DNA of 64,000 nt from Bacteroidota bacterium (lineage in GTDB: Bacteria > Bacteroidota > Ignavibacteria > UBA10030 > UBA6906): contig JAUQWO010000020.1 of assembly GCA_030835135.1 (NCBI GenBank), positions 379 through 64,378 on the forward strand, in the 5' to 3' direction. Position 1 is the stretch's first letter. Every line of letters starts with the position of its first letter. Below are positions 8,904-60,975 of the stretch, in pieces. Position numbers and translations under genes: made by a program. The notes beneath the pieces were generated by a model. That model saw nothing but the letters and a program-made list of their open reading frames with translations, had not been told where the DNA came from and searched no databases.

Positions 8904-8985
8904 GTAGGGGCGGTGCATGCGCCAGCCCCTGCTCCCCGTGTACAGTTTTCGGCCGGGGTTGTATCGCACCGAGCCTACCCGACGG
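8904..8985. repeat. Degenerate copy of the GC-rich hairpin repeat family, in the convergent gap between the VWA gene and gyrA
   Basis: The sequence gtaggggcggtgcatgcgccagcccctgc...ggggttgtatcgcaccg matches the repeats at 27768 and 32640. Confidence 0.6.
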
Positions 8986-16839: not shown

Positions 16840-16879
16840 GGTGATCTCCTTCGGGCTGAAACGTGTGATGCGGAAATGA

Positions 16880-16970
16880 GAATATCCCCGTAAATGTACT
16901 GAAAAACCCTATAATAATCCAATATTTCTATATATGTATACAGATAAGATTACTAATATACGGTGTGGAT
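16880..16970. promoter_or_regulatory. AT-rich tract in the dnaA-dnaN intergenic region, a candidate DNA-unwinding element or secondary origin
   Basis: The sequence aaatgtactgaaaaaccctataataatccaatatttctatatatgtatacagataagattactaatatacggtgtggatat is far more AT-rich than the 62-66% GC background. It contains a one-mismatch DnaA box (tgtggatat). Confidence 0.4.
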
Positions 16971-17191
16971 ATGTTGACCGCGCCATCCACTGCTGCTCCA
17001 AGAGCTGAGAGTCGAACAACAGGACATCGTGACCTCAAGCGATGGATGAGGAAGCGGTCTGTGGAAAGATATCCACGTTGTGTACATGTGGGGCCGGGTT
17101 GTGGTGAAAGAGTGTCGCTGCTGATTCTTGTGCACTGGTATTCCACAGCTGTTCACATCATGCGGACAGTGTCGTGCACATGGAATTCACA

Positions 17192-18739
17192 TTATACGTG
17201 TCCGAGTAACTGCAATCTTCTTTTTATCTGCGTCACATGGGTCTGGTATTTCGAATCCACGCGCATCTGGTCTTCCACGGACTGATAGGCATGGATGACG
17301 GTGCTGTGATCGCGGCCGCCGAAATGCAGCCCGATCGTTTTCAGTGAGGCATTCGTCAGTTCTTTCGCCAGATACATCGCGATCTGCCGGGCATTCACGA
17401 TCTCCTGCTTGCGCGTTTTTGCGCGGAGCATGTCCTCCGGAACGCTGAAGTACTCGCACACGGTGCGCTGAATGCTCTCGATCGTGATCGGCGTGCGGAC
17501 ATCGCCGACGACCACCTTGAGGACGTCGCGGGCGAGGTCCAGGTTGATCTCGCGGCCTTCCAGCGATGCACGCGCCAGAACGCTGATGAGGCAGCCTTCG
17601 AGCTCACGGATGTTACTGGTGACGTTTGCGGCAATGAATTCAACCACATCCTGGGGGAGCTCGATGTGGTCGTCCTCGCTTTTCTTGCGCAAAATGGCGA
17701 TGCGCGTCTCGAGGTCCGGTGCCTGAATATCCGACGTCAGGCCCCATTGGAATCGCGAAAGGAGCCGGTCGTCCAGTCCCTTCAATTCCTTCGGCGGACG
17801 GTCGGAGGAGAGCACGAGCTGTTTGCCGAGCTGATGCAGTTCGTTGAACGTGTGAAAAAAGTTATCCTGGGTCTTTTCCTTGCCGGAGAAGAACTGGATG
17901 TCGTCCACGATCAGGATGTCCATGCTCCGGTAGAAACTGGAGAAGTCGGAGATGCGGTCTGTCTGGATCGCGTCCACGAACTCCACGGTGAACTTTTCGC
18001 TGGACACATACATCACGCGACGGGCTTTGCCGGTGCTGAGGGCATGGTTGCCGATGGCCTGGATCAAGTGCGTCTTGCCGAGTCCGGTGCCGCCATAGAT
18101 GACCAGAGGGTTGAACGATGTGCCGCCGGGGTTGTTGGATACGGCCGACGCCGCGGCGCGGGCGAGCTGGTTGCTATCGCCCTTGATGAAATTGTCGAAG
18201 GTGTACCGGGGGTTCAGATACGTCTGGAAGTCCATATCCCGGGACGTGACGTTCGACGAACTCCGCGGGGCAGGGGGGAGCGGCTGCACCGGGGGAACGG
18301 GCTGGGACGGACGGATCGGGGAGGCGATCACGGGGGAGTAGTCCACGTCCACCGGCGACTCTTCGGTGCGGACCGAGTATTCGAGGGCGGCATCGGGGCC
18401 GAGGACCCGGGTGATGGTCGTGTTGATGATGGTATAATAGTGCTCCTCGAGCCAGTCGTAGAAGAACTGGCTGGGGACCTGGACGATGAGGGTGCCGCCC
18501 TGGAGGTTCTGAGGAACGACCGGTTCGAACCAGGTCTTGAAGCTCTGGGAATTCACCCGCTCTTTGATGAGGTCGAGGCAGGCAGCCCAGACGCGTTGTG
18601 CCTGTTCGAGCTCGGAGGGGTGTTGGCCGCCTATTGGGCCGTTACCCTCTGGTGCAGAAGAAGATGCGAGGTTGTTCATCAGATCCGCCCGGTTATCCAC
18701 AATGTTGTTCACAGATGTGGAATGGTCAATAGTAAGCAT
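17192..18739 (-). CDS. dnaA: Chromosomal replication initiator DnaA
   Basis: The AAA+ Walker A motif is GGTGLGKTHLIQAIGN. Domain IV, the DNA-binding HTH, contains IAMYLAKELTNASLKTIGLHFGGRDHSTVIHA. Confidence 0.95.
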   Translation of the reverse strand: MLTIDHSTSVNNIVDNRADLMNNLASSSAPEGNGPIGGQHPSELEQAQRVWAACLDLIKERVNSQSFKTWFEPVVPQNLQGGTLIVQVPSQFFYDWLEEHYYTIINTTITRVLGPDAALEYSVRTEESPVDVDYSPVIASPIRPSQPVPPVQPLPPAPRSSSNVTSRDMDFQTYLNPRYTFDNFIKGDSNQLARAAASAVSNNPGGTSFNPLVIYGGTGLGKTHLIQAIGNHALSTGKARRVMYVSSEKFTVEFVDAIQTDRISDFSSFYRSMDILIVDDIQFFSGKEKTQDNFFHTFNELHQLGKQLVLSSDRPPKELKGLDDRLLSRFQWGLTSDIQAPDLETRIAILRKKSEDDHIELPQDVVEFIAANVTSNIRELEGCLISVLARASLEGREINLDLARDVLKVVVGDVRTPITIESIQRTVCEYFSVPEDMLRAKTRKQEIVNARQIAMYLAKELTNASLKTIGLHFGGRDHSTVIHAYQSVEDQMRVDSKYQTHVTQIKRRLQLLGHV

Positions 18740-18910
18740 TCGTTTTCACAATTTATCCACATATGCACACGGCAGAATAATGCTGTAAGTCGTTGTAGGA
18801 CTGCCGTTTATGGAAATTTTCTTGATTAGAGGGTTATGAGTGTGCGAATCGCGGAAGCAGGTTCTGTCGGAAATTGGGGGGATACTCCGAAGCGCACAAG
18901 TTATCCACAT
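18690..18910. promoter_or_regulatory. DnaA-box cluster in the oriC and dnaA-promoter region
   Basis: Three perfect TTATCCACA boxes lie at 18693, 18752 and 18901. Degenerate boxes (tgtggaatg, ttttcacaa) lie between them. The cluster sits at the divergent dnaA / rpmH junction. Confidence 0.65.
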
Positions 18911-19851: not shown

Positions 19852-21636
19852 ATGGATAGGTCATCAACGCTGGGCTTTGTGCTGATAGGTGTCATCCTCA
19901 TTGCGTGGATGTGGTGGCAGTCGCCCACGCCGCAGCAACCGGTGCGCGGAGCCGACAGTACGCATTCCGTCACCCAGAAGCCCGTCGCGCCCGAACCCGC
20001 GCCTGTGGCAGCGCCGGCAAAGACCGAGACGATGCCGGACAAGCTGGGTGCGTATTTCGGAGGCCGCGACAAGGGTGACGAGAAGGTCGTGATCATCAGG
20101 ACCGACCTGTACACGGCGGAGCTGACGACGAAGGGCGGGCTTCTGCGGAAGTGGGAGTTGCACGGATACAAGACCTGGGACGGCAAGCCGGTGCAGCTGG
20201 TGGACTTCGACAAAGGGGGCGACCTGAGTCTGCTCTTCACGTCGAACGACGGCAAGCTGATCGACACGAAGAACCTGGTGTTCGATGTCGAGGGTCCGCG
20301 GTGGAAGACCATCACGCTGACCGGCACGGATTCCGTGAAGGTGGCAATGGTGTTGCCGGTTTCGAATGGCGGGCGGCTGGTGAAGAGCTTCACGTTCAGG
20401 AACGGCTCGTATGTGTTCGGTGCGGACGTGCAGTTCGAGAACATGGATTCCGTGGTGGCGTACGAGTATCAGATCGTGTGGGAACACGGTCTGAAGTATG
20501 CCGAGCAGAACAGCGTGGACGAGTCCAGTTTTGCGATGGGGTACGTGCATGCCGGCGGAGAGCTGACCGAGGTGGATGCGACCACGGCGGGAGAGGCCGT
20601 GCAAAAGGACATCTCCGGGGCTACGGACTGGATCGCCACGCGGAACAAGTACTTTTTGATGACGATGTTGCCCGGTGTGCCGAAGAGCGAGGGGGCATTT
20701 GTCGAGGGGACGCACAAGGCCGCGGCGGACCATGGGGCGATCGAGAGCTATACGCTGGCATTGAAGATGCCGTTCCGGGGAGGGGTGAAGGAGCGGGCGA
20801 CCATGGATGTGTATCTGGGCCCGCTGGAGTACGACACGGTGAAGGCGTTGGGGCGCGGGGTGGAAGGGACGATGAACCTGGGTGCGGCATGGATCATCCG
20901 GCCGATCTCCGAGTACGTCATGATCCCGTTGCTCCAGTTCCTGCGGATGTTCATTCCGAATTACGGCCTGGTGATCATCGTCTTCTCGATCATCATCAAA
21001 TTCGCGCTGCACCCGCTCACGAAGTCGAGTATGAAGGGCATGCGCCGGATGCAGGCGTTGACCCCGATGATGAATGAGGTGCGGGAGAAGTACAAGGATG
21101 ATCCGCAGAAGATGAACACGGCGGTGATGCAGCTGTACAAAGAGTACGGGGTGAACCCGGCGGCCGGGTGTCTGCCGTTATTGCTGCAGATGCCGATCCT
21201 GTTCGCGTTGTATTCCGTGTTCCGGTCGTCGATCGAATTGCGTCAGGCGTCGTTCGTGGGATGGATCACGGACCTGTCGATCCCTGACGTGATCGCCACC
21301 ATGCCGTTCCGGGTGCCGTTGATCGGGATGGACACGTTGAGCGGGTTGGCGTTGATCATGGGCATCACGATGTTCGTGCAGCAGAAGCAGACGGTGACGG
21401 ATCCGCGTCAGAAGGCCATGGTGTGGATGATGCCGATCATGATGACGCTGTTGTTCAGCAGTCTGCCGTCCGGTTTGAATTTGTATTATCTCGTGTTCAA
21501 CGTGTTGAGCATCGGGCAGCAGTACTGGTTCAACATGCAGCACAAGGATGAGCCGTTGCGGAAGGTGGAGCCGAAGAAGGGTGGCGGCGGGTGGATGGCG
21601 AAGATCTCGAAGGATCTGCCGAAGCTCAAGAAGTAG
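19852..21636 (+). CDS. yidC: Membrane protein insertase YidC
   Basis: An N-terminal transmembrane segment and periplasmic domain are present. The conserved C-terminal 60-kDa insertase core is GCLPLLLQMPILFALYSVF...NLYYLVFNVLSIGQQYW. Confidence 0.9.
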   Translation: MDRSSTLGFVLIGVILIAWMWWQSPTPQQPVRGADSTHSVTQKPVAPEPAPVAAPAKTETMPDKLGAYFGGRDKGDEKVVIIRTDLYTAELTTKGGLLRKWELHGYKTWDGKPVQLVDFDKGGDLSLLFTSNDGKLIDTKNLVFDVEGPRWKTITLTGTDSVKVAMVLPVSNGGRLVKSFTFRNGSYVFGADVQFENMDSVVAYEYQIVWEHGLKYAEQNSVDESSFAMGYVHAGGELTEVDATTAGEAVQKDISGATDWIATRNKYFLMTMLPGVPKSEGAFVEGTHKAAADHGAIESYTLALKMPFRGGVKERATMDVYLGPLEYDTVKALGRGVEGTMNLGAAWIIRPISEYVMIPLLQFLRMFIPNYGLVIIVFSIIIKFALHPLTKSSMKGMRRMQALTPMMNEVREKYKDDPQKMNTAVMQLYKEYGVNPAAGCLPLLLQMPILFALYSVFRSSIELRQASFVGWITDLSIPDVIATMPFRVPLIGMDTLSGLALIMGITMFVQQKQTVTDPRQKAMVWMMPIMMTLLFSSLPSGLNLYYLVFNVLSIGQQYWFNMQHKDEPLRKVEPKKGGGGWMAKISKDLPKLKK

Positions 21637-21814
21637 CTGGCGCCGCATAGGTGCACGATGTCTCTGGGGCCCGCCTGTCAGGTGGGCCCTTTCTATTGCG
21701 GGCGGGCGGGTGACGGGCGTGGTCCTGGCTGCGTTGCGCCTGTACGTGGAAATCCGTAGAATAGTGAACTTTGTTCGGAGAACGCGAAGTCTCGCTCGCG
21801 TGGCATCGGAGGGC

Positions 21815-21930
21815 ACCCGCCGGGGGCTCCCGACTCGGTTTCTCCAAATTCTTCGATCGGCGGAATGGGGAACGAGACCCCTGCGGTGTCCACGGAGTGG
21901 AGAAACCTCGCTGGGAGCCCCCGTCGGGTG
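21815..21930 (-). repeat. MITE-like ~111-bp inverted-repeat element, copy D (reverse orientation)
   Basis: This is the reverse complement of the ccggggagatgccccagcgaggtttctccactccgtggacgcc...gatcgaagaatttggagaaaccgagtcggggcactccccggg element. Confidence 0.75.
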
Positions 21931-22145
21931 CTGTCACCGTGTCCGGCTCACTCGAAAGGAAGCACGGCAGTGGGCCGGTATGCTGTCAGCGTGCCCGGCT
22001 CACTCGAAAGGAAGCACGGCAGTGGGCCGGTATGCTGTCAGCGTGCCCGGCTCACTCGAAAGGAAGCACGGCAGTGGGCCGGTATGCTGTCAGCGTGCCT
22101 GGCTCACTCGAAAGGAAGCACGGCAGTGGGCCGGTATGCTGCTGC
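21925..22145. repeat. 52-nt tandem repeat, four copies
   Basis: The unit is ccggctcactcgaaaggaagcacggcagtgggccggtatgctgtcagcgtgc, with period-52 starts at 21943, 21995, 22047 and 22099. Confidence 0.85.
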
Positions 22146-22155
22146 CGGATAGCCG

Positions 22156-23685
22156 TTGAACAATGACGGATCGACGCGGTCCATGGCTGATCAAGTGCAT
22201 GATTCTATAGCCGCTATTGCGACGCCTCCTGGCGCGGGTGCCCTGGCGATCATACGCGTGAGCGGACCGGATGCCGTGGCGATAGGGGACCGTGTGTTTC
22301 GAGGCTCCGCCCTGCTCGGTTCGGCTGGTGGCTATACGGTGCATCATGGCAGCATCGTCGGGCCCGGCGGCGAGCAGTTCGATGAAGTGCTTGTCACCCT
22401 CTTCCGCGGTCCGAAGTCGTACACCGGCGAGGACATGATCGAGATCTCGTGTCATGGCGGCGGGTTTGTGACGCGTGAGGTGTTGCGGATCGTGCTGGCT
22501 GCGGGTGCGCGGCCTGCGCAGCCGGGAGAGTACACGCGGCGGGCGTTCCTGAACGGCCGCATCGATCTGTCGCAGGCCGAGGCGGTCGCGGACGTGATCG
22601 CCGCACGCAGCCGGCGCGGGCACCGGGTCTCGCTCGAGCAGCTGGCCGGCCGCCTGGGCGACGCCGTGCGCGAGTTGCGCACGGAGATGATGGACTTATG
22701 TGCGTTATTGGAACTAGAGCTCGATTTCAGTGAGGAAGGTCTGGACGTGATCACCGCGCAGGACGTCGACCGGCGGATCGCCGCCGTGCGTGTGCGCATC
22801 GGTGCGCTCCTCGCCTCCTATACGCACGGACGCATCTACCGCGACGGCGTGCGGGTCGTCCTTGCCGGTGAACCGAACGCCGGCAAGTCCAGCGTGTTCA
22901 ATGCACTCCTCCGCCAGGACCGCGCTATCGTTACTCCTGTACCCGGCACAACGCGCGACGCGCTCGAGGAAAGCATCGTCATCGATGGCATCCTCTTTCT
23001 GCTTATCGACACCGCCGGACTCCGCGAAACCGCCGACCAGGTCGAGCGGATCGGCGTACAGCGGTCGCGCAGTGCCGCGAGCGGCGCGGATATCCTTGTG
23101 CACGTCATGGATGCATCCGTCTCGTCCGACGTCGACGAACATCTGATGCGCATGTCCGTCCACACCGACGAGCAGCACTTCATCCCTGTGCTGAACAAGT
23201 GCGACCTGCTGCCTTCATGGCCGGGCGTAATGTTGCGCGCGTCATCCGTCGTCACTGCACACGCGACATCACCATCAGGCGTAAGTAACGACTCTGCCGG
23301 ATACAAGACATCGGCATCAGACTCAAGCAACGACTCTGCCGCACACATGACATCGGCGTCTGGATCAGTCAATGTCGTGGCGGTCTCAGCGCGCACCGGT
23401 CAGGGACTCGACCTCTTGCGGTCGAGGCTCGCGGAAGTTGCGGCAGGGGACACCTCGCTCGGGGACGAAGAAGTATGCATCACCAGCGAGCGGCATCGCG
23501 ATGCTCTCGAGAAGGCACAGGCATCGCTTGCCCGTGCATCGGCCGGATCGTCCGCGCGTTCGTCCGAAGAGTACCTTGCCTTCGACATTCGTGAAGCCGC
23601 CGCGGCTCTCGCCGAGATCACTGGCGAGGTAACGACCGAAGAAGTGCTCAACCACATCTTCGACCGGTTCTGTATCGGAAAGTAG
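22156..23685 (+). CDS. mnmE: tRNA modification GTPase MnmE (TrmE)
   Basis: The N-terminal THF-binding region is IAAIATPPGAGALAIIRVSGPDA and the G1 motif is GEPNAGKSSVFNALL. The C-terminus ends in CIGK. An alternative start lies at 22183 (MADQVHDSIAAIATPPG). A serine-rich insertion of about 45 aa sits in the G-domain. Confidence 0.9.
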   Translation: MNNDGSTRSMADQVHDSIAAIATPPGAGALAIIRVSGPDAVAIGDRVFRGSALLGSAGGYTVHHGSIVGPGGEQFDEVLVTLFRGPKSYTGEDMIEISCHGGGFVTREVLRIVLAAGARPAQPGEYTRRAFLNGRIDLSQAEAVADVIAARSRRGHRVSLEQLAGRLGDAVRELRTEMMDLCALLELELDFSEEGLDVITAQDVDRRIAAVRVRIGALLASYTHGRIYRDGVRVVLAGEPNAGKSSVFNALLRQDRAIVTPVPGTTRDALEESIVIDGILFLLIDTAGLRETADQVERIGVQRSRSAASGADILVHVMDASVSSDVDEHLMRMSVHTDEQHFIPVLNKCDLLPSWPGVMLRASSVVTAHATSPSGVSNDSAGYKTSASDSSNDSAAHMTSASGSVNVVAVSARTGQGLDLLRSRLAEVAAGDTSLGDEEVCITSERHRDALEKAQASLARASAGSSARSSEEYLAFDIREAAAALAEITGEVTTEEVLNHIFDRFCIGK

Positions 23686-23739
23686 CATGGGTCCAGCGCG
23701 TCTTGTCTTGTCCCGAACGTAGTGGTTCAGTGGTGGCGA

Positions 23740-23850
23740 CCGGGGAGATGCCCCAGCGAGGTTTCTCCACTCCGTGGACGCCTGATCGAAATCGTTGTGT
23801 ATGCTGTGGATCGAAGAATTTGGAGAAACCGAGTCGGGGCACTCCCCGGG
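23740..23850 (+). repeat. MITE-like inverted-repeat element, copy A
   Basis: The terminal inverted repeats are ccggggagatgcccc and ggggcactccccgg. The internal inverted repeat pairs cgaggtttctcca with tggagaaaccgag. Confidence 0.75.
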
Positions 23851-24075
23851 CGCTACTCCGTAACCATCGGGGTTGCGGCGCATTCCGGGCGCTACTCCGC
23901 AGCCCTCGGGATGCGGTGCCTTTCGGGCGCTACTTCGTAGCCCTCGGTGTAGCGGTGCTTTCCGGGCGCTACTCCGTAACCCTCGGGGTTACGGCGCATT
24001 CCGGGCGCTACTCTGTAGCCGTCGGGATGCGGTGCCTTTCGGGCGCAACTCCGGCGCATCAGGTGGTTGCAGTGA
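23848..24075. repeat. ~39-nt degenerate tandem repeat, about 5.5 copies
   Basis: The units run cgggcgctactccgta followed by a 23-nt variable part (accatcggggttgcggcgcattc, gccctcgggatgcggtgcctttc, and so on). Each unit contains a short hairpin such as ccgtaacc..ggttacgg. Confidence 0.8.
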
Positions 24076-24097
24076 CGATGAATAGCAAAGGCGGTCA

Positions 24098-24115
24098 ATG
24101 TTCCACGTGAAACAT
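24098..24115 (+). promoter_or_regulatory. Near-perfect 18-nt palindrome atgttccacgtgaaacat containing the mnmG start codon
   Basis: Seen directly. It has one mismatch from a perfect palindrome and contains CACGTG. Confidence 0.5.
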
Positions 24116-25978
24116 AGCTACGACGTCATAGTGGTGGGTGGCGGACACGCCGGCATCGAAGCCGCGCTGGCCGCTGCCCGGATGGGGTGCGCCACCGCCC
24201 TCGTCACCATGGACGCCGCCGCCATCGGCCGCATGTCGTGCAACCCTGCCATCGGAGGCTCCGCCAAAGGCCACCTCGTCCGCGAGATCGACGCCCTGGG
24301 TGGTGAAATGGGACTCATCGCCGACGCCACCGGGATCCATTTCCGAATGCTCAACACCTCTAAAGGTCCCGCTGTCTGGTCGCCCAGGTCGCAGAACGAC
24401 CGGGAGTGGTACAGCAGCGAAGCGCGGCGCAGGGTGGAGTCGCAGCCCGGCCTCGACGTCATCACGGGGTTCCTCTCCGACATCACCGTTGAGAAGGGCG
24501 AGGTCCACGCTGTCACGGTGAACCGGGAGACCACGTTTTCGTGCCGCTCGCTCGTCCTCTGCAGCGGCACGTTCCTCAACGGACTCATGCACACGGGTGA
24601 GAACACAACCACGGGCGGACGCTACGGCGAGCCGGCGTCGGTTGGACTCACTGAGAGGTTCATCGCCCTAGGGTTCGTCGCCGGTCGCCTGAAGACCGGG
24701 ACGCCGCCACGGCTCGACCTTACGACCATCGACCTGGATGAGACCGAGATACAACATGGCGACGCGGACCCGACCCCATTCTCATTCCGGAACGATCGGA
24801 TCGCCAACAGGCAGATCCCCATGTATCTGACCTACACTAACCTCCTGACCCACGAGGTGCTGCGCACCGGGTTCGATGCCTCGCCGCTCTTCACCGGGAG
24901 GATCAAGGGTGTTGGTCCACGGTACTGTCCCTCCATCGAAGACAAGATCAATCGCTTCGCCGACCGAGAGCGACATCAGATATTTCTCGAGCCCGAAGGG
25001 TACGACTCCACCATCGTCTACATGAATGGCTTCTCATCAAGTCTGCCTGCTCATGTGCAGGAGGCGGCCATCCACACCATCCCGGGTCTCAGGCACGCAA
25101 AGATGACCAGGCCGGGTTATGCCGTGGAGTACGACTTCTTCCCGCCACACCAGGTGCGTCACACTCTGGAGACGAAGCTGGTGAAGGGGCTCTACTTCGC
25201 CGGACAGATCAACGGCACGAGCGGATATGAGGAAGCGGCAGGGCAGGGTCTGATCGCGGGCATCAATGCCGCCCTCCGTGTGAAGGGTGATGATTCGTTC
25301 ACCCTGGATCGGAGTGAGGCGTACATTGGCGTGCTCATCGACGACCTCATCAACAAGAGCACCGAGGAGCCGTACCGCATCTTCACGTCGAGAGCGGAAT
25401 ACCGTCTGGCTCTGCGCCAGGACAACGCCGACACCCGGCTCATGAGGAAGGGTGCGGCGCTCGGACTCATCTCCTCCGATGTGCTCGCGAAGCTCAATGA
25501 CAAGGAGCGCGCCATCGCCGGTGCGAAAGAGTATCTCACCATGGTGAGACTCAGCGGGAAGGAGATCGCGGCGACGTTCGGCGACAGGCTCGATGGCACC
25601 GTGCCGGAGAGCGAGACCCTCATCGGGTTGTTGAAGCGTCCGGAGGTCGTTCTCAGAGACATCATCCGTATCCCCATGGTGCGGGAGAGCGATGCCATGA
25701 GGGGTGTGGTTGCGGACAAGGAGATCTTCTCACGGGTAGAGACCGAGGTGAAGTACGAGGGATACCTGCGGAGGCAGGACGAGCAGATCAGGCAGTTCCA
25801 GAAGAGCGAGTCCATGCGGATACCCGAGGGGATGGATTATCACGCGCTCCGGTCGCTGAGCAATGAGGCGCGGGAGAAGCTGGCGAGGGTGCGGCCGGCC
25901 TCCATCGGTCAGGCCATGAGGATCAGCGGCGTCACCCCGGCCGACGTGTCGGTACTAATGATCTCACTTATGAGGTGA
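24098..25978 (+). CDS. mnmG: tRNA uridine 5-carboxymethylaminomethyl modification enzyme MnmG (GidA)
   Basis: The FAD-binding motif is [23 protein letters not shown]. It is 626 aa, typical of GidA. Confidence 0.95.
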
Positions 25979-25995
25979 TGTTTCACGTGAAACAT
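25978..25995 (+). promoter_or_regulatory. Perfect 18-nt palindrome atgtttcacgtgaaacat containing the rsmG start codon
   Basis: Seen directly. It is the same motif as at the mnmG start, and both genes therefore encode MFHVKHS.DV. Confidence 0.5.
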
Positions 25996-26712
25996 TCACG
26001 CGACGTGCAAGTCATCTGTCGGAAGAACGGGTTCGATCTGACTGAAGGGATGGTGGAGCAGCTCGAGCAGTATGTTGCGCTGCTCCTTGAGTGGAATGCG
26101 AAGGTGAATCTGGTATCGAGGAAGGATCAGGAGAACATCTGGGGAGGGCATGTGTTGCACGCGCTCTCGTTGATGTTCAGGATACGGCTGCCGGAGGAGA
26201 TGAGGGTGATCGATCTTGGCTCGGGAGGTGGTTTGCCCGGGATACCATTGGCGATAGTGAACCCGCGGTGGAGTGTCGGGTTGCTCGACTCCATTCAGAA
26301 GAAGTGTGCGGCGGTGCAGGACATCATCACACGCATGGGTTTAGCAGTGCGCGTTGAAGTGATCGTAGGTCGAGCGGAGGAGAAGGCGATCCTTGATGTG
26401 CGGAGGGGGAAGGCAGACGTTGTTGTGGCGAGGGGTGTGGCCCCGCTTGCGGAGCTCGTGAAGTGGTCCAAGCCATACTTGAAAAAGCCGGCGGAAGCCG
26501 GGCCGGCGGTGGAAGACGCCGGGGGCATTGTGCGTGTCACACCGCCGGTGTTGATCGCGTATAAGGGTGGTGACCTCGAGGGGGAGATAAGGGAGATGAG
26601 GATGAAGACGGGGAGGGTTGTGGCGTCGGATGTACCGATAGCATTTGCGGAAGCGGAAGAGTGCGGCCTCACCGGGAAGACGATCCTGGTGGTGCCGATC
26701 CACAGGCAATGA
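25978..26712 (+). CDS. rsmG: 16S rRNA (guanine527-N7)-methyltransferase RsmG (GidB)
   Basis: The ATG overlaps the mnmG stop codon (TGATG). The SAM motif is IDLGSGGGLPGIPLAI and the N-terminus carries LLLEWNAKVNLVS. Confidence 0.85.
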   Translation: MFHVKHSRDVQVICRKNGFDLTEGMVEQLEQYVALLLEWNAKVNLVSRKDQENIWGGHVLHALSLMFRIRLPEEMRVIDLGSGGGLPGIPLAIVNPRWSVGLLDSIQKKCAAVQDIITRMGLAVRVEVIVGRAEEKAILDVRRGKADVVVARGVAPLAELVKWSKPYLKKPAEAGPAVEDAGGIVRVTPPVLIAYKGGDLEGEIREMRMKTGRVVASDVPIAFAEAEECGLTGKTILVVPIHRQ

Positions 26713-26745
26713 TTTCTATAACCGTTATTGTAATGAAGAGCTCCG

Positions 26746-27675
26746 ATGAGTAAAGACCTTTCTGATGCGCTCGCGAAGCTGCTCACCGAGCAGCGTAATC
26801 CGGCATCGATGCAGATGGACAGTCTGAGTGTGGAGGAGATCCTCCGCCTCATCAACGATCAGGACAAGCGCGTGGCGCTGGCCGTGGAACATGAGATCCC
26901 CTGGATCGCGAAGGCCGTCGATCTTGTCGTCGCGTCCTTCCGCAGGGGCGGACGGCTGATCTATTTCGGGTCGGGCACATCCGGCCGACTCGGCGTCGTG
27001 GACGCATCCGAGTGCCCCCCCACCTTTGGCACGCCGCCCGAGCTCGTGGTCGGGATGATCTCGGGTGGACAGCCAGCGATGTTCAGGTCGGTGGAAGGTG
27101 CGGAGGATGATCCCGAGCAGGCGCGGCGCGAGGTGGATGCATTGAACGTCAACGACACCGACACTGTGTGCGGGATCGCAGCAAGCCGTCGGACCCCGTA
27201 TGCCGTTGCGGCGGTCGGACGTGCGCGGGAGCTGGGCGCGAAGACGCTGTACATTACCACCAACCCGCGGAAGGACTTCGACCTCGACGTCGACGTCCCG
27301 ATCTGTCCGGAAGTCGGTCCCGAGGTGCTCATGGGGTCCACGCGGATGAAGTCGGGCACCGCGCAGAAGCTCGTGCTCAACATGATCACCACCACCGCGA
27401 TGATCCGTCTGGGCAAGGTGTATGAGAACATGATGGTGGACCTGCAGCTCACGAACCAGAAGCTCGTGGAGCGGTCGAAGCGTATCGTCATGATGGCCAC
27501 CGGCATCGACTATGACGCGGCGACCATCGCGTTGGAGAAGGCGGGCGGGCACGTCAAGAGTGCGATCGTCATGGTGAAGGCCAACGTCTCGCTGGACGAA
27601 GCGCGCCGCCGCATCGATGCCGCGGATGGTTTCGTCCGCGCTGCGATAGAGGGAGTACCGTCGTCGAGGAAGTGA
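26746..27675 (+). CDS. murQ: N-acetylmuramic acid 6-phosphate etherase
   Basis: The SIS domain carries GSGTSGRLGVVDASECPPTF and the MurQ C-terminal motif is ENMMVDLQLTN. Confidence 0.85.
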   Translation: MSKDLSDALAKLLTEQRNPASMQMDSLSVEEILRLINDQDKRVALAVEHEIPWIAKAVDLVVASFRRGGRLIYFGSGTSGRLGVVDASECPPTFGTPPELVVGMISGGQPAMFRSVEGAEDDPEQARREVDALNVNDTDTVCGIAASRRTPYAVAAVGRARELGAKTLYITTNPRKDFDLDVDVPICPEVGPEVLMGSTRMKSGTAQKLVLNMITTTAMIRLGKVYENMMVDLQLTNQKLVERSKRIVMMATGIDYDAATIALEKAGGHVKSAIVMVKANVSLDEARRRIDAADGFVRAAIEGVPSSRK

Positions 27676-27712
27676 CCACTCTATAGCTGTTATTGCAATA
27701 TCTGTCTCGTAA

Positions 27713-28020
27713 GGGCGGTCCCGCAAGCGGGACCGCCCCTACACCATGCGCCCGGAGAGATGCCTTTGTAGGGGCGGTGCATCCACCGCCCCTACACCAG
27801 CGTGCGGTTGACAGTAGAGGTTTGCCGCACCACCGCGCACAATTTATGGTGGTGGCGCACGGAGGGGTGCGTTTGTAGGCGGCGGTTCCGCTTGCGTGAC
27901 CGCCCCTACACCATGCGCACGGAGAGATGCCTTTGTAGGGGCGGTGCATGCACCGCCCCTACACCAACGTGCGGTTGACTGTAGAGGTTTGCCGCACCGC
28001 CCCTACAATCCGTGGACGCC
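27713..28020. repeat. Two tandem ~160-bp units built from GC-rich perfect-palindrome hairpins
   Basis: The palindrome gggcggtcccgcaagcgggaccgccc lies at 27713-27738. The palindrome gtaggggcggtgcatccaccgcccctac lies at 27768-27795. A perfect 28-nt palindrome, gtaggggcggtgcatgcaccgcccctac, lies at 27945-27972. Confidence 0.85.
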
Positions 28021-28075
28021 TGACAGTAATCGTGGTGTATGCAGCCGATCGAAGAATAGTGAAGCACGACTGACG
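27985..28075 (+). repeat. Partial copy (E) of the MITE-like element
   Basis: The sequence ccgtggacgcctgacagtaatcgtggtgtatgcagccgatcgaagaata matches the core of copies A-D. It lacks the right terminal inverted repeat. Confidence 0.55.
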
Positions 28076-28080
28076 AACGA

Positions 28081-31000
28081 ATGACCCCGATCCTCCCCCA
28101 CCTCCTCACCGACGACCCCTTCGTCCAGGAGCTCCATAACGCCGTCGCGCAATTGCGCCCCGGCGAACGAGCCACGGCAAGCGGCCTCGCCGGATCGCTC
28201 ACCGCGCTCGTCCTCACCGAGCTCCAGCGACTTTCGCAGAGGCAGGTCCTCGTCATTGCGCCTGAGAAAGACGCCGCCGTCAGGGTCTCCGACGACCTTG
28301 CCGCCCTGGCGAGTCTCGACACCGTCCGGCTCTTCGTCGGTCGCGAGGAATCCGACGCCCTGCTTACCGAGCGGAGCCGCGAGCTCCACGACGTGCACAC
28401 GTTGCGCTCGCTCACCAACGGCGACGTCAGCTTCGTCGTTACCCACGCCGGCGGTGCCCTCCACCGTCTCCCCTCCCCCGACACCGTCCGTACCGAAGCC
28501 CTCGTCCTCGAGACCGGCACACTGGCGGGGTTCCAGGAGACCATCAGCACTCTCAACAAATTCCACTTCGACCGCTGCGATATCGTGGAGAAGCCCGGCG
28601 AGTACGCCGTGCGCGGGGGGATCGTGGACGTTTTTCCGTTCGTGGGCGAGAACCCGATCCGCATCGAGTTCTTTGAGGACGAGGTCGAGAGCATCCGCGA
28701 ATTCGACGTCGGCTCCCAGCGCTCCATTCGGTCGCTTGCCACCGCGTTGCTCGTCCCTGACGTGCTGGACACCGAACTCCACGATCATGCGCAGGACGGC
28801 ATCCTGCTGGACTATCTGGCGGATGGGGCATTGCTCGTCATCCTGGAACCGTTATTGCAGGACGAGCCCCTGACGAAACTTCCTGCTGCGGCCCCCGCCC
28901 GCTACCACACCCGCGAATACCTCGACGAGGTCCTCGCCCTCTTTCCGCAGCTCCACTGCACGGCGCTGGATCCTTCCGCCCGCGCCCTGGATGCCGGCGG
29001 ACGGCCGCAGCCGGCATTCAACGGCAGCGTGCAGATGATGGCGCGCGACATCGCCGAGCGGCAGGCCGAGGGGTACGCCGTCATCATCACCTGCGACAGC
29101 CAGTCGGAGATGGCGCGCGTCCGCGAACTCCTTGCCACCGCCGCCGCCGGACTCGAAGACATGACGCCGCCCGACATCGAGGCGCTGCGGTTCACCCTCG
29201 AGGCGGTGCATGAGGGATTCCTCCTCCCCTCCCGCAGGCTGGCCGTGTATACCGAACATCAGGCATTCGGCCGCATCAAGCGCCGGGGCACGCGCCGGAA
29301 GGCGAAGTTCAAGGGGATCACCGAGAAGGAGCTCACCCAGCTCCGCAAGGGCGACTACGTCGTGCATGAGGATTTTGGCATCGGGAAGTTTGCCGGCCTC
29401 AAGACCATCCACGTCCGCGAGATCCCGATGGAGGTCGCCTCGGTGCTGTACGCCGAGAACGACACGCTGTACGTGAACATCAGCTTCATCAATAAGCTGC
29501 AGAAGTACTCTTCCAAGGACGGCCATGTACCGGTGCTGCATCGGCTGGGCAGCGGCGAGTGGGACCGCCTGAAGCAGCGGACGAAGAAGCGGGTCAAGGA
29601 TATCGCGCGTGAGCTCATCGGGCTCTATGCGCGGCGGAAGCATCTGGAAGGCTTCTCCTTCCCCGCCGACACCCCCTGGCAGCAGGAGCTCGAGGCATCG
29701 TTCATGTACGAGGACACCGTGGACCAGGCCAAGGCCACGGTAGATGTGAAGCGGGACATGGAAGGCACATCGCCCATGGACCGGCTCATCTGCGGCGATG
29801 TCGGGTTCGGCAAGACCGAGGTTGCCGTGCGCGCCGCATTCAAGGCCGTCGTCGCCGGCAAGCAAGTGGCCGTGCTCGTCCCCACCACCATCCTGGCATT
29901 GCAGCACACCAACACCTTCCGCGACCGGGTAGCGCGGTACGGCGTCAGCGTAGAATCGCTCTCCCGCTTCACGCCCAAGAAAGAGCAGGACGCCATCGTG
30001 GAGCGGATGAAGGCCGGGGGCGTGGACATCGTCATCGGCACGCACCGGCTGCTCTCCAAGGACATCAAGTTCAAGGACCTCGGGCTCCTCATTATAGATG
30101 AGGAACACCGGTTCGGCGTTGCCGCAAAGGAAAAGCTGCGGCACCTCCGGACGCAGATCGACACTCTGGCGCTCACCGCCACACCCATTCCGCGTACGCT
30201 GCACTTCTCCCTCATGGGGGCGCGCGACCTCTCGATCATCGCCACGGCACCCAGGAACCGTCTGCCCATCCAGACCGAGATCGTGCAGTGGAACGATGAC
30301 ATCATCCATGAAGCCATTCGCCGGGAGATCGTACGGGGCGGACAGGTCTACTTCGTGCACGATAAGGTCCACAACATGGATGAGGTCGCCGAGCGGCTGC
30401 GTGCGCTGCTCCCGGACGTCCGCATGCGTGCCGCACACGGACAGATGAAAGCAAGTGAGCTCGAGGACGTGATGATGGCCTTCCTCGAGAAGCAGATCGA
30501 CCTGTTGATCACCACGAAGATCATCGAGTCGGGGCTCGACATCCCCAACACGAACACCATCATCATCAATCGTGCCGATCACTTCGGGATGGCCGAGCTC
30601 TATCAGCTTCGTGGGCGCGTGGGACGCTCCAACCAGCAGGCGTACGCATATCTCATCACTCCGCCGGTATCGGTCCTCGGCCGCACCACATTGCAGCGAT
30701 TGCAGGCGATGCAGGAGTTCACCGAGCTCGGGTCGGGGCTGAACCTCGCCATGCGCGATCTCGAGATCCGTGGCGCCGGCAACCTGCTGGGGAGCGAGCA
30801 GAGCGGCTTCATCGAAGCCATGGGATTTGAAACATATACGCGTTTGCTCGACGAAGCCGTGCACGAACTCAAGCGCGACGAATTCGCGGAGCTCTTCCCC
30901 GAAGACGCAGGGTTCACCGGTGGAAAGCAGGTCGTGGTGGAGGCCGAGATCGAGGCACTCATTCCGCAGGAGTACATCCCGGGCGAGGGCGAACGCCTCG

Positions 31001-31422
31001 CCATCTACCGCCGGCTTCATGCGCTCACGGACAATACTCAGCTCGAGGAGGTTGCCAACGAGCTGCGCGACCGGTTCGGGCGTATCCCCTACCAGGTGGA
31101 AGGCCTCTTCGGCGTGATACGCCTCAAGCTGTTGGCGGCGAAGATCGGGTTCTCGAAGCTGCATCTGGATACCGACCGGTTGGAAGTGCACTTCCCGCCG
31201 CAGGAAGACACGGCATTCTACGGTTCCGCGGTGTTCCAGGACCTCATGACGATGCTCTCGCGCAAACGAGACCGCGGTGTCACGCTGAATCAGACGGACG
31301 CGCTGTTGCGGGCCGTCGTGCCGCTCAATGCCGGCACCGATTCCGCCGTGGCCATCACGCGGAGCATGGAGTTCCTCACCGAGCTGGCCGGCGTCCTGCC
31401 CATGGAGGCGGTGCCAGCGTAG
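28081..31422 (+). CDS. mfd: Transcription-repair coupling factor Mfd
   Basis: The Walker A motif is GDVGFGKTEVAVRAAFKA and the DEEH box is IIDEEHRFGV. It is 1113 aa with a UvrB-homology N-terminus and a TRG motif region. Confidence 0.95.
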   Translation: MTPILPHLLTDDPFVQELHNAVAQLRPGERATASGLAGSLTALVLTELQRLSQRQVLVIAPEKDAAVRVSDDLAALASLDTVRLFVGREESDALLTERSRELHDVHTLRSLTNGDVSFVVTHAGGALHRLPSPDTVRTEALVLETGTLAGFQETISTLNKFHFDRCDIVEKPGEYAVRGGIVDVFPFVGENPIRIEFFEDEVESIREFDVGSQRSIRSLATALLVPDVLDTELHDHAQDGILLDYLADGALLVILEPLLQDEPLTKLPAAAPARYHTREYLDEVLALFPQLHCTALDPSARALDAGGRPQPAFNGSVQMMARDIAERQAEGYAVIITCDSQSEMARVRELLATAAAGLEDMTPPDIEALRFTLEAVHEGFLLPSRRLAVYTEHQAFGRIKRRGTRRKAKFKGITEKELTQLRKGDYVVHEDFGIGKFAGLKTIHVREIPMEVASVLYAENDTLYVNISFINKLQKYSSKDGHVPVLHRLGSGEWDRLKQRTKKRVKDIARELIGLYARRKHLEGFSFPADTPWQQELEASFMYEDTVDQAKATVDVKRDMEGTSPMDRLICGDVGFGKTEVAVRAAFKAVVAGKQVAVLVPTTILALQHTNTFRDRVARYGVSVESLSRFTPKKEQDAIVERMKAGGVDIVIGTHRLLSKDIKFKDLGLLIIDEEHRFGVAAKEKLRHLRTQIDTLALTATPIPRTLHFSLMGARDLSIIATAPRNRLPIQTEIVQWNDDIIHEAIRREIVRGGQVYFVHDKVHNMDEVAERLRALLPDVRMRAAHGQMKASELEDVMMAFLEKQIDLLITTKIIESGLDIPNTNTIIINRADHFGMAELYQLRGRVGRSNQQAYAYLITPPVSVLGRTTLQRLQAMQEFTELGSGLNLAMRDLEIRGAGNLLGSEQSGFIEAMGFETYTRLLDEAVHELKRDEFAELFPEDAGFTGGKQVVVEAEIEALIPQEYIPGEGERLAIYRRLHALTDNTQLEEVANELRDRFGRIPYQVEGLFGVIRLKLLAAKIGFSKLHLDTDRLEVHFPPQEDTAFYGSAVFQDLMTMLSRKRDRGVTLNQTDALLRAVVPLNAGTDSAVAITRSMEFLTELAGVLPMEAVPA

Positions 31423-31501
31423 TTTTGGTGAGCGATGATAGTAGAAAGAGGGACAGACGAAGCCAGGAAGGAGTCACCAAATGACCGCCTGGTGAGGGCG
31501 A

Positions 31502-31612
31502 CCGGGGAGATGCCCCAGCGAGGTTTCTCCACTCCGTGGACGCCTGGCAGCAATCGAGGTGTACGACGCTTATCGAAGAATTTGGAGAAACCGAGTCGGG
31601 GCACTCCCCGGG
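31502..31612 (+). repeat. MITE-like inverted-repeat element, copy B
   Basis: The terminal inverted repeats and the core tttctccactccgtggacgcc...gatcgaagaatttggagaaaccgagtcgggg are the same as in copy A. Confidence 0.75.
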
Positions 31613-31637
31613 CGCTACTCCGACAAAGGTGAATTTC

Positions 31638-32576
31638 GTGAGCCATCGCGTGAAAAGACTCTTCCTGCTAACGTTTCTCGTTGCCTCTGTCGCAGCGGGG
31701 CAAACCAAGCACTTGTGCGTGACGATCGACGATCTACCCGTCGTCGCCTACGGCATCGCCGACACGAGCTACCAGCGAAAGATCATCACGGCACTCACAC
31801 GCGGACTCGTGGATGCCAGAGCTCCTGCCATTGGCTTCGTGAACGAACAGAAGCTGAACGACGACACAGGCCTCTCCCCTTTCCGCGTCTCACTCCTCGA
31901 GCAGTGGCTCGATGCCGGACTGGATCTCGGGAATCACACCTACTCTCACCCGGACATCAACACGATCACCTGTGCGGCGTACTTTGCGGATGTCATCCGC
32001 GGTGAGACCGTCACACGGCAGCTTCTCCGGCGGCGCGGAACGACACTCCGCTACTTCCGGCATCCGTTCCTCTACCTGGGCAGCACAAAGCACGTTGCCG
32101 ATTCATTGAGCACATTCCTTGCGGGACGCGGATACACGACAGCCCCCGTCACCATCGACAACGACGATTACATGTTCGCGGCCATGTATCATCGTGCGTA
32201 TCAGCGGCGGGACACGGCAGATGCGAAGAAGGTCGGACGGGAGTACGTGGCGTATCTGGAAACGAAGCTGCAGTACTACGAGCGGCAGTCGGTCAAGCTG
32301 TTCGGGCGGCCCATCGCGCAGGTGCTGCTCATCCATGCGAGCCGACTGAATGCAGAACACATCGACGCGTTGCTGGCGATGATCAGGAGGAACGGGTATA
32401 GCTTCGCGGACCTCGCGAGCGTGTTGCGGGACGAAGCATACCATACGCCCATCACCGTCTACAAGAAGTACGGCATCTCGTGGTTGGATCGCTGGGCGCT
32501 GTCAGCGGGGAAGACCGGGGACTTCTTCAAAGAAGAACCTGACGTGCCGGAGTATATCAGGGCAGGTTGGAAATAA
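31638..32576 (+). CDS. Polysaccharide deacetylase (NodB-homology domain) family protein, secreted
   Basis: The GTG start is at 31638; an alternative GTG at 31650 gives MKRLFLLTFLVASVAAGQ. A signal peptide is present and the NodB motif is DLGNHTYSHPD. The ORF extension upstream of 31638 lies inside a repeat and is not used. Confidence 0.75.
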   Translation: MSHRVKRLFLLTFLVASVAAGQTKHLCVTIDDLPVVAYGIADTSYQRKIITALTRGLVDARAPAIGFVNEQKLNDDTGLSPFRVSLLEQWLDAGLDLGNHTYSHPDINTITCAAYFADVIRGETVTRQLLRRRGTTLRYFRHPFLYLGSTKHVADSLSTFLAGRGYTTAPVTIDNDDYMFAAMYHRAYQRRDTADAKKVGREYVAYLETKLQYYERQSVKLFGRPIAQVLLIHASRLNAEHIDALLAMIRRNGYSFADLASVLRDEAYHTPITVYKKYGISWLDRWALSAGKTGDFFKEEPDVPEYIRAGWK

Positions 32577-32596
32577 GGGCGGTCCCGCGTGCGGAA

Positions 32597-32690
32597 CCGC
32601 CCCTACGCCATGCGCACTGTCGACAGAAGGGGTTGTATCGCACCGCCCCCACACCCATCATGGTGGCGTCGACGGGGGGGTATGCCCGGC
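32597..32690. repeat. GC-rich hairpin repeat of the same family as 27713-28020 and 8904-8985
   Basis: The sequence gggcggtcccgcgtgcggaaccgcccctacgccatgcgc...ggggttgtatcgcaccgccc shares motifs with both other copies. Confidence 0.7.
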
Positions 32691-32743
32691 AAGGTATCCC
32701 CGCGAACATGCCTCCATCGAATTGGTGAACATGGTGATGGCGA

Positions 32744-32854
32744 CCGGGGAGATGCCCCAGCGAGGTTTCTCCACTCCGTGGACGCGTGACAGTAATCGTG
32801 GTGTATGTGGCTGATCGAAGAATTTGGAGAAACCGAGTCGGGGCACTCCCCGGG
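32744..32854 (+). repeat. MITE-like inverted-repeat element, copy C
   Basis: It is the same ~111-bp element with the same terminal inverted repeats. Confidence 0.75.
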
Positions 32855-32975
32855 CGCTACTCCGTAGACTTCACAGTTGCTGCACTGCCCGGGCGCTACT
32901 CCGTAGACTTCACAGTTGCTGCACTGCCCGGGCGCTACTCCGTAGACTTCACAGTTGCTGCACTGCCCGGGCGCA
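32849..32975. repeat. 39-nt tandem repeat, three identical copies
   Basis: The unit is cccgggcgctactccgtagacttcacagttgctgcactg. Confidence 0.85.
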
Positions 32976-51491: not shown

Positions 51492-51566
51492 TCTACGCCA
51501 GGCGGGGACTATTCTCACAGGAATCTCAATCTGCCGATAGGCTTCTCGACACTTCGGAATGGTGAA

Positions 51567-60972: not shown

Positions 60973-60975
60973 CCC

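Follow-up and report, generated by a model that had tools for sequence, protein, structure and literature searches.

A palindromic intergenic repeat resembling REPINs in an uncultured lineage related to Bacteroidota

A stretch of 64,000 nucleotides from a Bacteroidota bacterium (GenBank assembly GCA_030835135.1, contig JAUQWO010000020.1, positions 379 to 64,378; we call this whole stretch the window) contains a palindromic intergenic repeat of about 121 nt, with four full copies and one decayed copy. We propose, with a probability of roughly 55%, that this element is a lineage-specific, non-autonomous repeat of the REPIN or BIME type, that it is mobilized as a single-stranded DNA hairpin by an enzyme like the REP-associated tyrosine transposases (RAYTs), and that it acts as a hairpin in mRNA. 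(REPs are repetitive extragenic palindromes, REPINs are inverted doublets of REPs, and BIMEs are bacterial interspersed mosaic elements.) The sequence family was previously undescribed; the kind of element, a REP-, REPIN- or BIME-like palindromic intergenic repeat, is known.

Copies of the element

An earlier note, made from the sequence alone, described a repeated, non-coding, palindromic element in five gaps between genes, and our analysis agrees. Two conserved 20-mers (TCGAAGAATTTGGAGAAACC and GGTTTCTCCACTCCGTGGAC) each occur exactly four times in the window, always in the full copies, versus 0.00–0.01 occurrences expected from shuffled sequence. The family was also recovered by a general search of the window for direct and inverted repeats. 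The length given in the note, ~111 bp, was too short: aligning the copies yields a conserved block of ~121 nt, which includes GGCGA at the 5' side and GCGCT at the 3' side. The description of the copies as near-identical holds for the three forward copies, which are 90–93% identical to each other, but the reversed copy is just 71–73% identical to them.

The note's names for the adjacent genes (yidC, mnmE, murQ, mfd, and a deacetylase) were right, as judged by NCBIfam. Of the six consecutive gaps between yidC and an open reading frame (ORF) at 33041, five hold a copy. The three forward copies form subfamily I: they share the outer stem GGCGaCCGGGGAGaUGCCCC / GGGGCACUCCCCGGgCGCU and have a center of type B (see below). 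The first of them, at 23735–23855 (+), is in the mnmE-mnmG gap, 50 nt past the stop codon of mnmE (folding free energy −62.5 kcal/mol, z = −5.9; 159.6 bits with a covariance model built from nine copies). The second, at 31497–31617 (+), lies between mfd and a polysaccharide deacetylase gene, 75 nt past the mfd stop, and ends 21–33 nt upstream of the likely deacetylase start, which is GTG at 31638 or 31650 (−68.9 kcal/mol, z = −6.85; 157.9 bits). The third, at 32739–32859 (+), lies 163 nt past the deacetylase stop and precedes the ORF whose ATG is at 33041 (−65.7 kcal/mol, z = −6.0; 162.2 bits). On its upstream side are REPs of a second, GTAG-type family, which we return to below. The fourth full copy, at 21810–21935 (−), is in the yidC-mnmE gap and has the opposite orientation to the genes. 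It is a member of subfamily II, with the outer stem GCACCCGaCGGGGGCUCCC / GGGAGCCCCCGgCGGGUGC and a type-A center (−72.8 and −76.3 kcal/mol for the two strands; 137.2 bits).

The fifth copy, at ~27985–28064 (+) in the murQ-mfd gap, ends 17 nt upstream of the start codon of mfd. The earlier note reported a truncated copy at 27985–28075; it is real, but what survives is the 51-nt center, with its flanking motifs CCGTGGAC ... GATCGAAGAAT, and the covariance model matches it at 28003–28064 (35.4 bits, model positions 41–101). Its right arm is deleted, and its left arm is broken by GTAG-type REP palindromes and by a 167-nt duplication. Remnants of the left arm at 27840–27984 (+), with the structure GGTGGTGGCGCACGGAGG..., CGGAGAGATGCCTT / REP / CCAACG...GAGGTTTGCCGCACC, belong to this 167-nt tandem duplication (27714–27834 and 27881–28001), and the covariance model has a match of 17.9 bits at 27871–27968. 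Individual copies can decay: the same gap holds full copies in two relatives (L005 and L010), versus the decayed copy in the window.

Every copy was said to lie immediately 3' of a gene. The forward copies do follow stop codons, at distances of 50–163 nt, but the distance from the preceding stop codon to the copy is 50–310 nt overall, and the reversed copy is placed in the 5' leader of mnmE.

Insertion into compact operon junctions

We used homologs of MnmG as the entry to the syntenic loci of relatives, and the percentages in this paragraph are the identities of their MnmG proteins to that of the window. L006 (GCA_905339585.1) is from the same organism and has the same copy as the window, with 3 mismatches in 2105 nt, none of them in the element or its tandem array. 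L005 (GCA_009612975.1; 89%) has copies in the yidC/mnmE gap (reversed, as in the window), the mnmE/mnmG gap, and the murQ/mfd gap. L008 (87%) has the element upstream of mnmG, and L010 (87%) has it at murQ/mfd. So the element is found in the same gaps of three related genomes and is not confined to the window. Gene positions on a 133-kb contig from the nearest relative in JGI (P0003; 88%) show the same five gaps widened to 294–642 nt. L009 (84%), L011 (79%), and L007 (72%) lack the element, and their mnmE-mnmG spacers are just 12 nt; the murQ-mfd spacer of L007 is 12 nt as well. In the window, L005, and L008, which have the element, the mnmE-mnmG spacer is 226–412 nt. The host lineage is uncultured, and the nearest named relatives are Bacteroidota metagenome-assembled genomes, at 65–68%.

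The orthologs of copy 23735–23855 are L005 9808–9928 and L008 79–199, and the corresponding site is empty in L009, L011, and L007. Similarly, the ortholog of the reversed copy is L005 8196–8320 (−), which is 91–92% identical to it. The 12-nt empty mnmE-mnmG spacers imply that the element was inserted. We conclude that a narrow clade acquired the element in its ancestor, by insertion into operon junctions that had been compact, and that vertical inheritance has kept it in those gaps. A covariance-model search of 139 kb (the window and the relatives' loci) added no other full copies.

Searches of public collections yielded no genuine match to the element. Exact 20-mers had three matches among genomes representing each GTDB species and one match in JGI metagenomes; all of these were single chance matches within coding sequence. 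One exact 20-mer had no match in viral contigs, and BLAST against plasmid and phage collections gave no match to the element. We also compared six-frame translations of both subfamilies to 5.8 billion proteins, and the only match was to the window's own mis-started deacetylase ORF (P0122). These nucleotide and protein searches indicate that the element is rare in public data and non-coding. The conserved antisense peptide that the earlier note had put down to DNA identity is such a by-product. More broadly, we rejected a coding role: the frames are open by composition only, the two types of center differ whichever frame is read, and the protein search gave no homologs. Integron attC sites, which we considered because copies are 3' of genes and keep their structure better than their sequence, were rejected as well, since the aligned copies lack the R''/R' cores (RYYYAAC / GTTRRRY) and the flanking housekeeping genes are syntenic in all relatives.

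A long interrupted hairpin

Every full copy folds into one long, interrupted hairpin (−62 to −76 kcal/mol as RNA). For all full copies, and for either strand, the z-scores relative to dinucleotide shuffles are −5.2 to −6.9. The outer stem is ~18–20 bp and includes a conserved A-G mismatch. Above it are a conserved A-C mismatch, a GC/GU step, and an internal loop of tandem G-A / G-A pairs, followed by an invariant inner helix of 10 bp (GGUUUCUCCA / UGGAGAAACC). The region between the two halves of the inner stem is 51 nt in all copies. The earlier note had a variable center of ~25 nt; about half of the 51-nt region does vary, and it comes in two types. The ends of the region are conserved (CNNNGUGGAC ... 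GAUCGAAGAAUU). The type-A center contains the hairpin GGGGUCUCGUUCCCC, and the type-B center is roughly GCCUGACAGUAAUCGUGGUGUAUGC.

The reversed copy keeps the inner stem and the motifs that flank the loop. Its outer stem has a different sequence, yet is self-complementary, and its center differs too. This different but self-complementary outer stem, together with the type-A center, is why we assign the reversed copy to a second subfamily. Between the subfamilies, conservation is lowest toward the ends of the arms. Overall, the arms pair across ~35 nt, and 91.5% of the cells are paired, with subfamily II partly out of register. The arms carry only mini-palindromes of the form GGGG-N4/5-CCCC and no GTAG; the GTAG palindromes form a separate family in the window.

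Compensatory changes support the pairing. Seven pairs changed on both sides, versus 2.6 in column shuffles (just 1 of 500 shuffles reached 7) and 0–2 in slid controls. For instance, the inner helix of L010 has a change from A-U to G-C. These changes support selection for self-complementarity, and with the folding scores they bear out the earlier note's expectation of a conserved secondary structure. Covariation cannot tell the stems of an RNA from inverted repeats in DNA. There is a conserved G-U pair (columns 36/114) in eight of nine copies, and the fold of the gene-sense strand is the more stable one in eight of nine copies, but this strand asymmetry is too weak and too non-independent to choose between RNA and DNA.

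Conservation and concerted evolution

At the four-fold degenerate sites of mnmG, L005 and L008 are just 62% and 58% identical to the window, and the spacer DNA that flanks the element cannot be aligned between genomes. In contrast, the arms of the element are 97–100% identical between genomes, and 71 alignment columns are invariant across the nine copies. Given this divergence and the unalignable flanks, neutral decay since insertion is excluded for the core. Both the stem pairing and an invariant core of ~70 positions are conserved far more strongly than neutral sites.

The copies within a genome also resemble each other more than they resemble their orthologs (90–98% identity for paralogs versus 82% for orthologs). 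All three copies in L005, from both subfamilies, have CCAC-CAT-GTGG and a type-A center, while all copies in the window, again from both subfamilies, have CCAC-TCC-GTGG. Three adjacent substitutions that are common to all the copies of a genome point to gene conversion or to co-evolution with a partner. The genome-specific variants of the loop and the center indicate concerted evolution, with copies homogenized by gene conversion. That the inner helix and the flanks of the loop are more conserved than the arms is a hint of a sequence-specific partner.

So we also considered that the element might be a structured RNA with a function for the host, either acting in cis within an mRNA or released from it by processing as a small RNA, and that its repeat-like spread is secondary. 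In that case, a platform for binding a protein or RNA partner would be made up of the 10-bp helix, the tandem G-A pairs, the A-C mismatch, and the loop motifs (GUGGAC ... GAUCGAAGAAUU), and the outer stem would serve only as a clamp. This would explain why the core is invariant, at ~60% neutral identity, while the outer stem changes its sequence and keeps its pairing; why the center is exactly 51 nt in both types; and why the copies of a genome all change jointly at the loop trinucleotide, as they would with a trans-acting partner. The G-U pair at 36/114 and the more stable gene-sense strand also fit. However, the copies have neither a conserved promoter nor a terminator, and their upstream flanks are unrelated. 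Also, the neighboring genes are functionally unrelated, one copy runs against the direction of transcription, decay of the murQ-mfd copy was tolerated in the window, and slightly more distant relatives have the same genes but not the element. Rfam offers no support either, and covariation does not distinguish RNA stems from DNA inverted repeats. We view a primary role as a structured RNA as unlikely, although it is the strongest of the alternatives to a REPIN-like repeat.

The earlier note had suggested searching Rfam, and the window has no match to any Rfam family at gathering thresholds. Nor was there anything credible at E values up to 5: the best match to a copy was the Deinococcus Y RNA, at 24.5 bits (the gathering threshold is 80) and E = 0.96. 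We rejected this identification and attribute the match to a generic resemblance among long hairpins.

Solo arms, tandem arrays, and insertion sites

More distant relatives have single arms of the element. Solo left arms are found in L013/L012 and in L014, and solo right arms lie immediately 3' of the deacetylase stop codon in L012/L013 and L015. At L014 2684–2737, in a different gap, a left arm is joined to a GTAG-type REP (94% identity), with the same REP insertion point as in the window.

This second family of repeats consists of GTAG-type REP palindromes (GTAAGGGCGGTCCCGCAAGCGGGACCGCCCCTAC and TGTAGGGGCGGTGCATCCACCGCCCCTACA), with 21 matches in the window versus 4.95 expected. They are at 27709–27795 (strand not assigned) and at ~27898–28006, ~32574–32652, and 8904–8978; the REP in L014 is at 2702–2737, where it is joined to the solo left arm. 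Yet another family of hairpin repeats may exist in the clade: the murQ-mfd gap of L010 contains, at 3422–3562 (−), a different long hairpin (GGCGGYATGGTGCTC...CAATTTCTCGCA), which is partly duplicated. The covariance model gives it 33.9 bits, apparently from structure alone. Also, within the ORF that begins at 33041, the stretch 33087–33105 matches the type-B center of copy 31497–31617 at 18 of 19 positions (GGACGCCTGGCAGGAATCG). This stretch is present in the orthologous gene of L013 as well, and its resemblance to the center is probably due to chance.

In three gaps, tandem arrays begin within the end of the element and their units repeat its terminal CCCGGGCGCTACTCCG. The array at 23846–24053 (+) has 5.4 copies of a 39-nt unit, with 80% matches; each unit is CCGGGCGCTACTCCG followed by a small hairpin. 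The array at 32843–32974 (+) has 3.4 copies of 39 nt, with 98% matches and the seed CCCGGGCGCTACTCCG. The array at 21929–22141 (+), which begins where the reversed copy ends on the gene-downstream side, has 4.1 copies of 52 nt, with 98% matches; L005 has a single unit at this site. The arrays are always on the downstream side of a copy, for both transcription and the movement of the replication fork.

The earlier note classified the element as a classic MITE (miniature inverted-repeat transposable element), REP, or structured small RNA, and proposed to look for target-site duplications. No duplication abuts the conserved block, and the flanks of the three forward copies have no direct repeat in common. 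The classification as a REP- or MITE-like palindromic intergenic repeat survives, but a classic MITE, which should have such duplications directly beside it, is not supported. A classic MITE would derive by deletion from a DDE-type insertion sequence and would have moved by means of its terminal inverted repeats. The element is short and non-coding, has long inverted repeats, and is present in several copies. Both filled and empty sites exist, and the entire mnmE-mnmG insert of the window is bracketed by TAGCA ... TAGCA, with a single TAGCA in the empty site. But the two TAGCA motifs are 45 nt and ~240 nt distant from the element, L005 has them in degenerate form, and no copy has abutting direct repeats. 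Furthermore, the arm ends are where the subfamilies differ most, and positions have been stable across ~40% divergence at four-fold sites. We found no transposase in the window; plasmids and phages gave no match, and the exact 20-mer was absent from the viral contigs. We think it improbable that the element is a classic MITE.

Instead, we propose that the element, which inserted into compact operon junctions in the ancestor of the narrow clade, has been mobilized and maintained, as a single-stranded DNA hairpin, by a RAYT- or IS200-like tyrosine transposase that would be encoded elsewhere in the genome. A RAYT-type mechanism would leave no target-site duplication. The stable hairpins may also provoke slippage during replication, which would seed the tandem arrays at the ends of the element.

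Transcriptional context

The yidC gene is followed by a canonical terminator at 21666–21690 (GGGGCCCGCC...GGTGGGCCC and then a T-run), which was identified by a terminator scan. Downstream of it, the motif TTGCGC-17 nt-TAGAAT (21734–21762) is kept in both the window and L005, within a gap that is otherwise unalignable. We read this motif as a putative promoter, from its sequence. Together, the terminator and the promoter-like motif suggest that mnmE is transcribed from a promoter of its own, with a ~410-nt leader. Since the reversed copy lies beyond both the terminator and the motif, we place it in this predicted leader, along with the four 52-nt repeats. As the forward copies are 50–163 nt past stop codons, all of the copies are probably borne on mRNAs as hairpins. 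The main effect of the element on the host would then be that of a long hairpin in a 3' untranslated region or a leader, which could block 3'-exonucleases and offer a site for a double-strand-specific RNase. This might modulate mRNA decay and uncouple the expression of neighboring genes. For the REPs of E. coli, a role as mRNA-stabilizing hairpins is established.

The earlier note had suggested that the element could be a terminator or encode a family of small RNAs. The terminator scan found no intrinsic terminator at any copy; there is no T-run, and GCGCTACTCCG follows the copies. We saw no conserved promoter upstream of the copies, and the upstream flanks are unrelated from copy to copy. A promoter within the element was rejected because there is no sigma-70 pattern and the conserved AAGAAT has no acceptable −35 sequence at the right spacing. 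The absence of a sigma-70 promoter and of a T-run, together with the unrelated flanks, argues against both an independent small RNA, for which Rfam had no match either, and an intrinsic terminator.

A primary role in termination, or as an insulator between genes, might still be suggested by the very stable GC-rich hairpins downstream of stop codons, and an effect of REPs on termination has been reported (reviewed in 10.1101/2021.07.10.451892). But no T-run follows a copy, and the terminator that the scan did find, at 21666–21690, is yidC's own and is upstream of a copy. Furthermore, the ancestral mnmE-mnmG junction was a 12-nt spacer within an operon, and one copy is in a leader, past a promoter-like motif. 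We consider this role very unlikely.

Genes and the replication origin

In the tables of genes for the relatives, gyrB-dciA-recF-dnaN-dnaA are on one strand and rpmH-rnpA-yidC-mnmE-mnmG-rsmG-murQ-mfd are on the other, which implies that the window contains the replication origin. In the window, NCBIfam identified YidC (19852–21636), MnmE (the true start is ATG 22183 and the end is 23685), MnmG (24098–25978), RsmG (between MnmG and MurQ), MurQ (26746–27675), Mfd (28081–31422), and the polysaccharide deacetylase (from GTG 31638 or 31650 to 32576). The minimum of the cumulative GC skew is near 16 kb. An AT-rich stretch at ~16890–16960, in the dnaN-dnaA gap, has sites that resemble DnaA boxes, and three perfect DnaA boxes (TTATCCACA) at 18693, 18753, and 18901 lie around the start of dnaA and in its upstream region. 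The origin (oriC) is likely to be at 16850–17190 and 18690–18910. The window also has two consensus parS sites, with just 0.05 expected by chance: 24099–24114 and 25979–25994, TGTTCCACGTGAAACA and the perfect palindrome TGTTTCACGTGAAACA. The first of these overlaps the start of mnmG and its first codons (MFHVKH), and the overlap is kept in L005, L007, L008, L009, and L011. The second is at the mnmG/rsmG junction.

This location raises the question of whether the element has an origin-linked role in DNA, as a cruciform or single-strand hairpin or as a site for a dimeric protein (TCCAC-N3-GTGGA), near oriC and parS. All of the copies are 3–16 kb to one side of oriC and are interleaved with the two parS sites; every copy has the 13-bp palindrome with a free 3-nt spacer; and the tandem arrays are always fork-downstream of a copy. 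However, TCCAC-N3-GTGGA occurs nowhere else in the window, oriC included, and close relatives with the same origin layout lack the element. Furthermore, the element's TTCTCCAC differs from the origin's TTATCCACA box. The clustering could be due to local spread and gene conversion, as seen in 64 kb of genome. An origin-linked role of this kind seems quite unlikely to us. (We also rejected the element as a DnaA box: the real origin uses the perfect TTATCCACA, and TTCTCCAC matches it at just 7 of 9 positions.)

A related idea is that the element has been domesticated: it would be a structured element under purifying selection, with a host function that is tied to its position next to oriC and parS. 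We give this somewhat more weight than a purely origin-linked role, but we still doubt it. If it were true, then the invariant core would be an RNA or single-stranded DNA platform (the 10-bp helix, the tandem G-A pairs, TCCAC-N3-GTGGA, and GAUCGAAGAAUU) that binds a lineage-specific protein, and the genome-specific loop trinucleotide would reflect co-evolution with that protein.

Effects on gene calls and assemblies, and other features of the window

The repeats mislead gene callers. For example, the deacetylase is entered in the database as a protein of 346 amino acids (P0122) that starts at GTG 31536, which is inside a copy, while its orthologs are 300–311 amino acids. A start that resembles a signal peptide follows GTG 31638 or 31650. 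The annotated start of P0122 is probably wrong because of the repeat.

The repeats also break short-read assemblies: the contigs of relatives end there (L006, L008, and the deacetylase contigs). The closest homologs of the deacetylase (P0123–P0128) are on very short contigs, of 1.1–3.2 kb. One of these contigs has a length of 1242 nt, exactly equal to the distance in the window between the element copies that flank the gene. This suggests that assemblies break or collapse at the repeats.

Some other features of the window were also noticed. Within the coding sequence of mnmE (region 23224–23375) is a 42-nt tandem repeat with 2.4 copies, at 23257–23357. MnmE has ~500 amino acids in the window versus 464 in L005, with ~108 extra in-frame nucleotides. 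The gyrA gene (minus strand, 8996–12094) is unusually long, at 1032 amino acids, and its 3' part has tandem repeats at 9078–9426 (21 nt x 3.7 and 60 nt x 2.2), which indicate a repetitive C-terminal tail. The region 50300–61000 has a low GC content (~0.53 versus 0.60 for the window) and contains a defense island, with a DUF4357 protein, an AAA_5 (McrB-like) ATPase and McrC (PF10117), and the type I restriction-modification proteins HsdM and HsdS.

Comparison with known repeats

To our knowledge, REP- and REPIN-type repeats have been characterized almost entirely in Proteobacteria. The element is a clean example of this type from an uncultured lineage related to Bacteroidota, and its insertion can be dated by comparing filled to empty sites. 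With its conserved arms, its concerted evolution, and a copy in the course of decay, the element can also be used to test whether such repeats persist through a benefit that they confer, as has been claimed, and not through selfishness.

Several observations weigh against our proposal that the element is a REPIN- or BIME-type repeat. First, its arms alone are weak palindromes without the GTAG signature that often precedes a REP; the window's GTAG family is the better "classical REP." Second, the most conserved parts of the element are the inner stem and the flanks of the loop, and not the terminal arms, which is the opposite of a typical REPIN. Third, conservation above the neutral rate across species implies a constraint at the level of the host or of a partner, which the label of "selfish repeat" leaves unexplained. 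Fourth, there are five copies within 11 kb and, according to BLAST and the covariance model, none in the remaining 53 kb, despite ~10 gaps there of over 130 nt. REPINs are usually dispersed, with tens to hundreds of copies. Fifth, Pfam scans of the ORFs in the 64-kb window found no RAYT or other transposase; REPINs go with a cognate RAYT (an IS200-like Y1 transposase), encoded by a single-copy gene that has the repeats on either side. Finally, the role that we propose for the element as an mRNA hairpin is suggested by analogy.

REPINs consist of inverted REP doublets with a spacer, which form a hairpin in single-stranded DNA or mRNA; singlets are found as remnants, and there are tandem arrays that include flanking sequence (PMC3116915). 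They have been described, along with RAYT transposases, in Pseudomonas, enterobacteria, and Neisseria (Bertels & Rainey 2011, PMC3116915; 10.1101/2021.07.10.451892). They show long vertical inheritance and conservation that depends on RAYTs, and roles in mRNA stability and termination have been proposed (10.1101/2021.07.10.451892). Similarly, the element is ~100–120 nt, has two inverted arms and a spacer, is predicted to form a long hairpin, and is strictly extragenic. It persists vertically in the same gaps, with solo arms as decay products and with arrays that include flanking sequence. Also as in REPINs, other REPs have inserted into or beside copies, and there is no target-site duplication. 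In typical REPINs, conservation is found in the REPs, and the spacer can vary freely. In contrast, the inner spacer is the most conserved part of our element, and its arms vary between subfamilies and have no GTAG. The other differences are that we saw no RAYT in the window, that the copies form a tight cluster of five within 64 kb, and that the host belongs to an uncultured lineage related to Bacteroidota instead of the proteobacteria.

The ERIC elements of enterobacteria (enterobacterial repetitive intergenic consensus sequences, also known as intergenic repeat units or IRUs) are ~127 bp, and the Correia elements of Neisseria are ~100–155 bp. Our element is like these in its length, its long imperfect palindrome, its co-transcribed RNA hairpin (as we predict), its presence at a site in some genomes and absence in others, and its internal variants, but has no sequence similarity to them. 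Correia elements have 26-bp terminal repeats, duplicate TA, and carry promoters and sites for integration host factor, and we saw none of these in the element.

In E. coli, BIMEs are found in transcribed 3' regions, and their REPs stabilize the upstream mRNA. As in BIMEs, the gaps that we studied are mosaics of several types of short palindromic units, in varying order and orientation. The sequences are unrelated, however, and the unit is 121 nt instead of ~35 nt. With classic bacterial MITEs, the element shares its short length, its lack of coding sequence, its inverted repeats, and the existence of both filled and empty sites, but it differs from them in that no target-site duplication abuts it, no cognate insertion sequence was found, and its terminal bases are the least conserved. 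Given the solo arms, the tandem arrays, the inserted REP family, and the lack of abutting duplications, a REPIN or BIME fits the element better than a classic MITE does.

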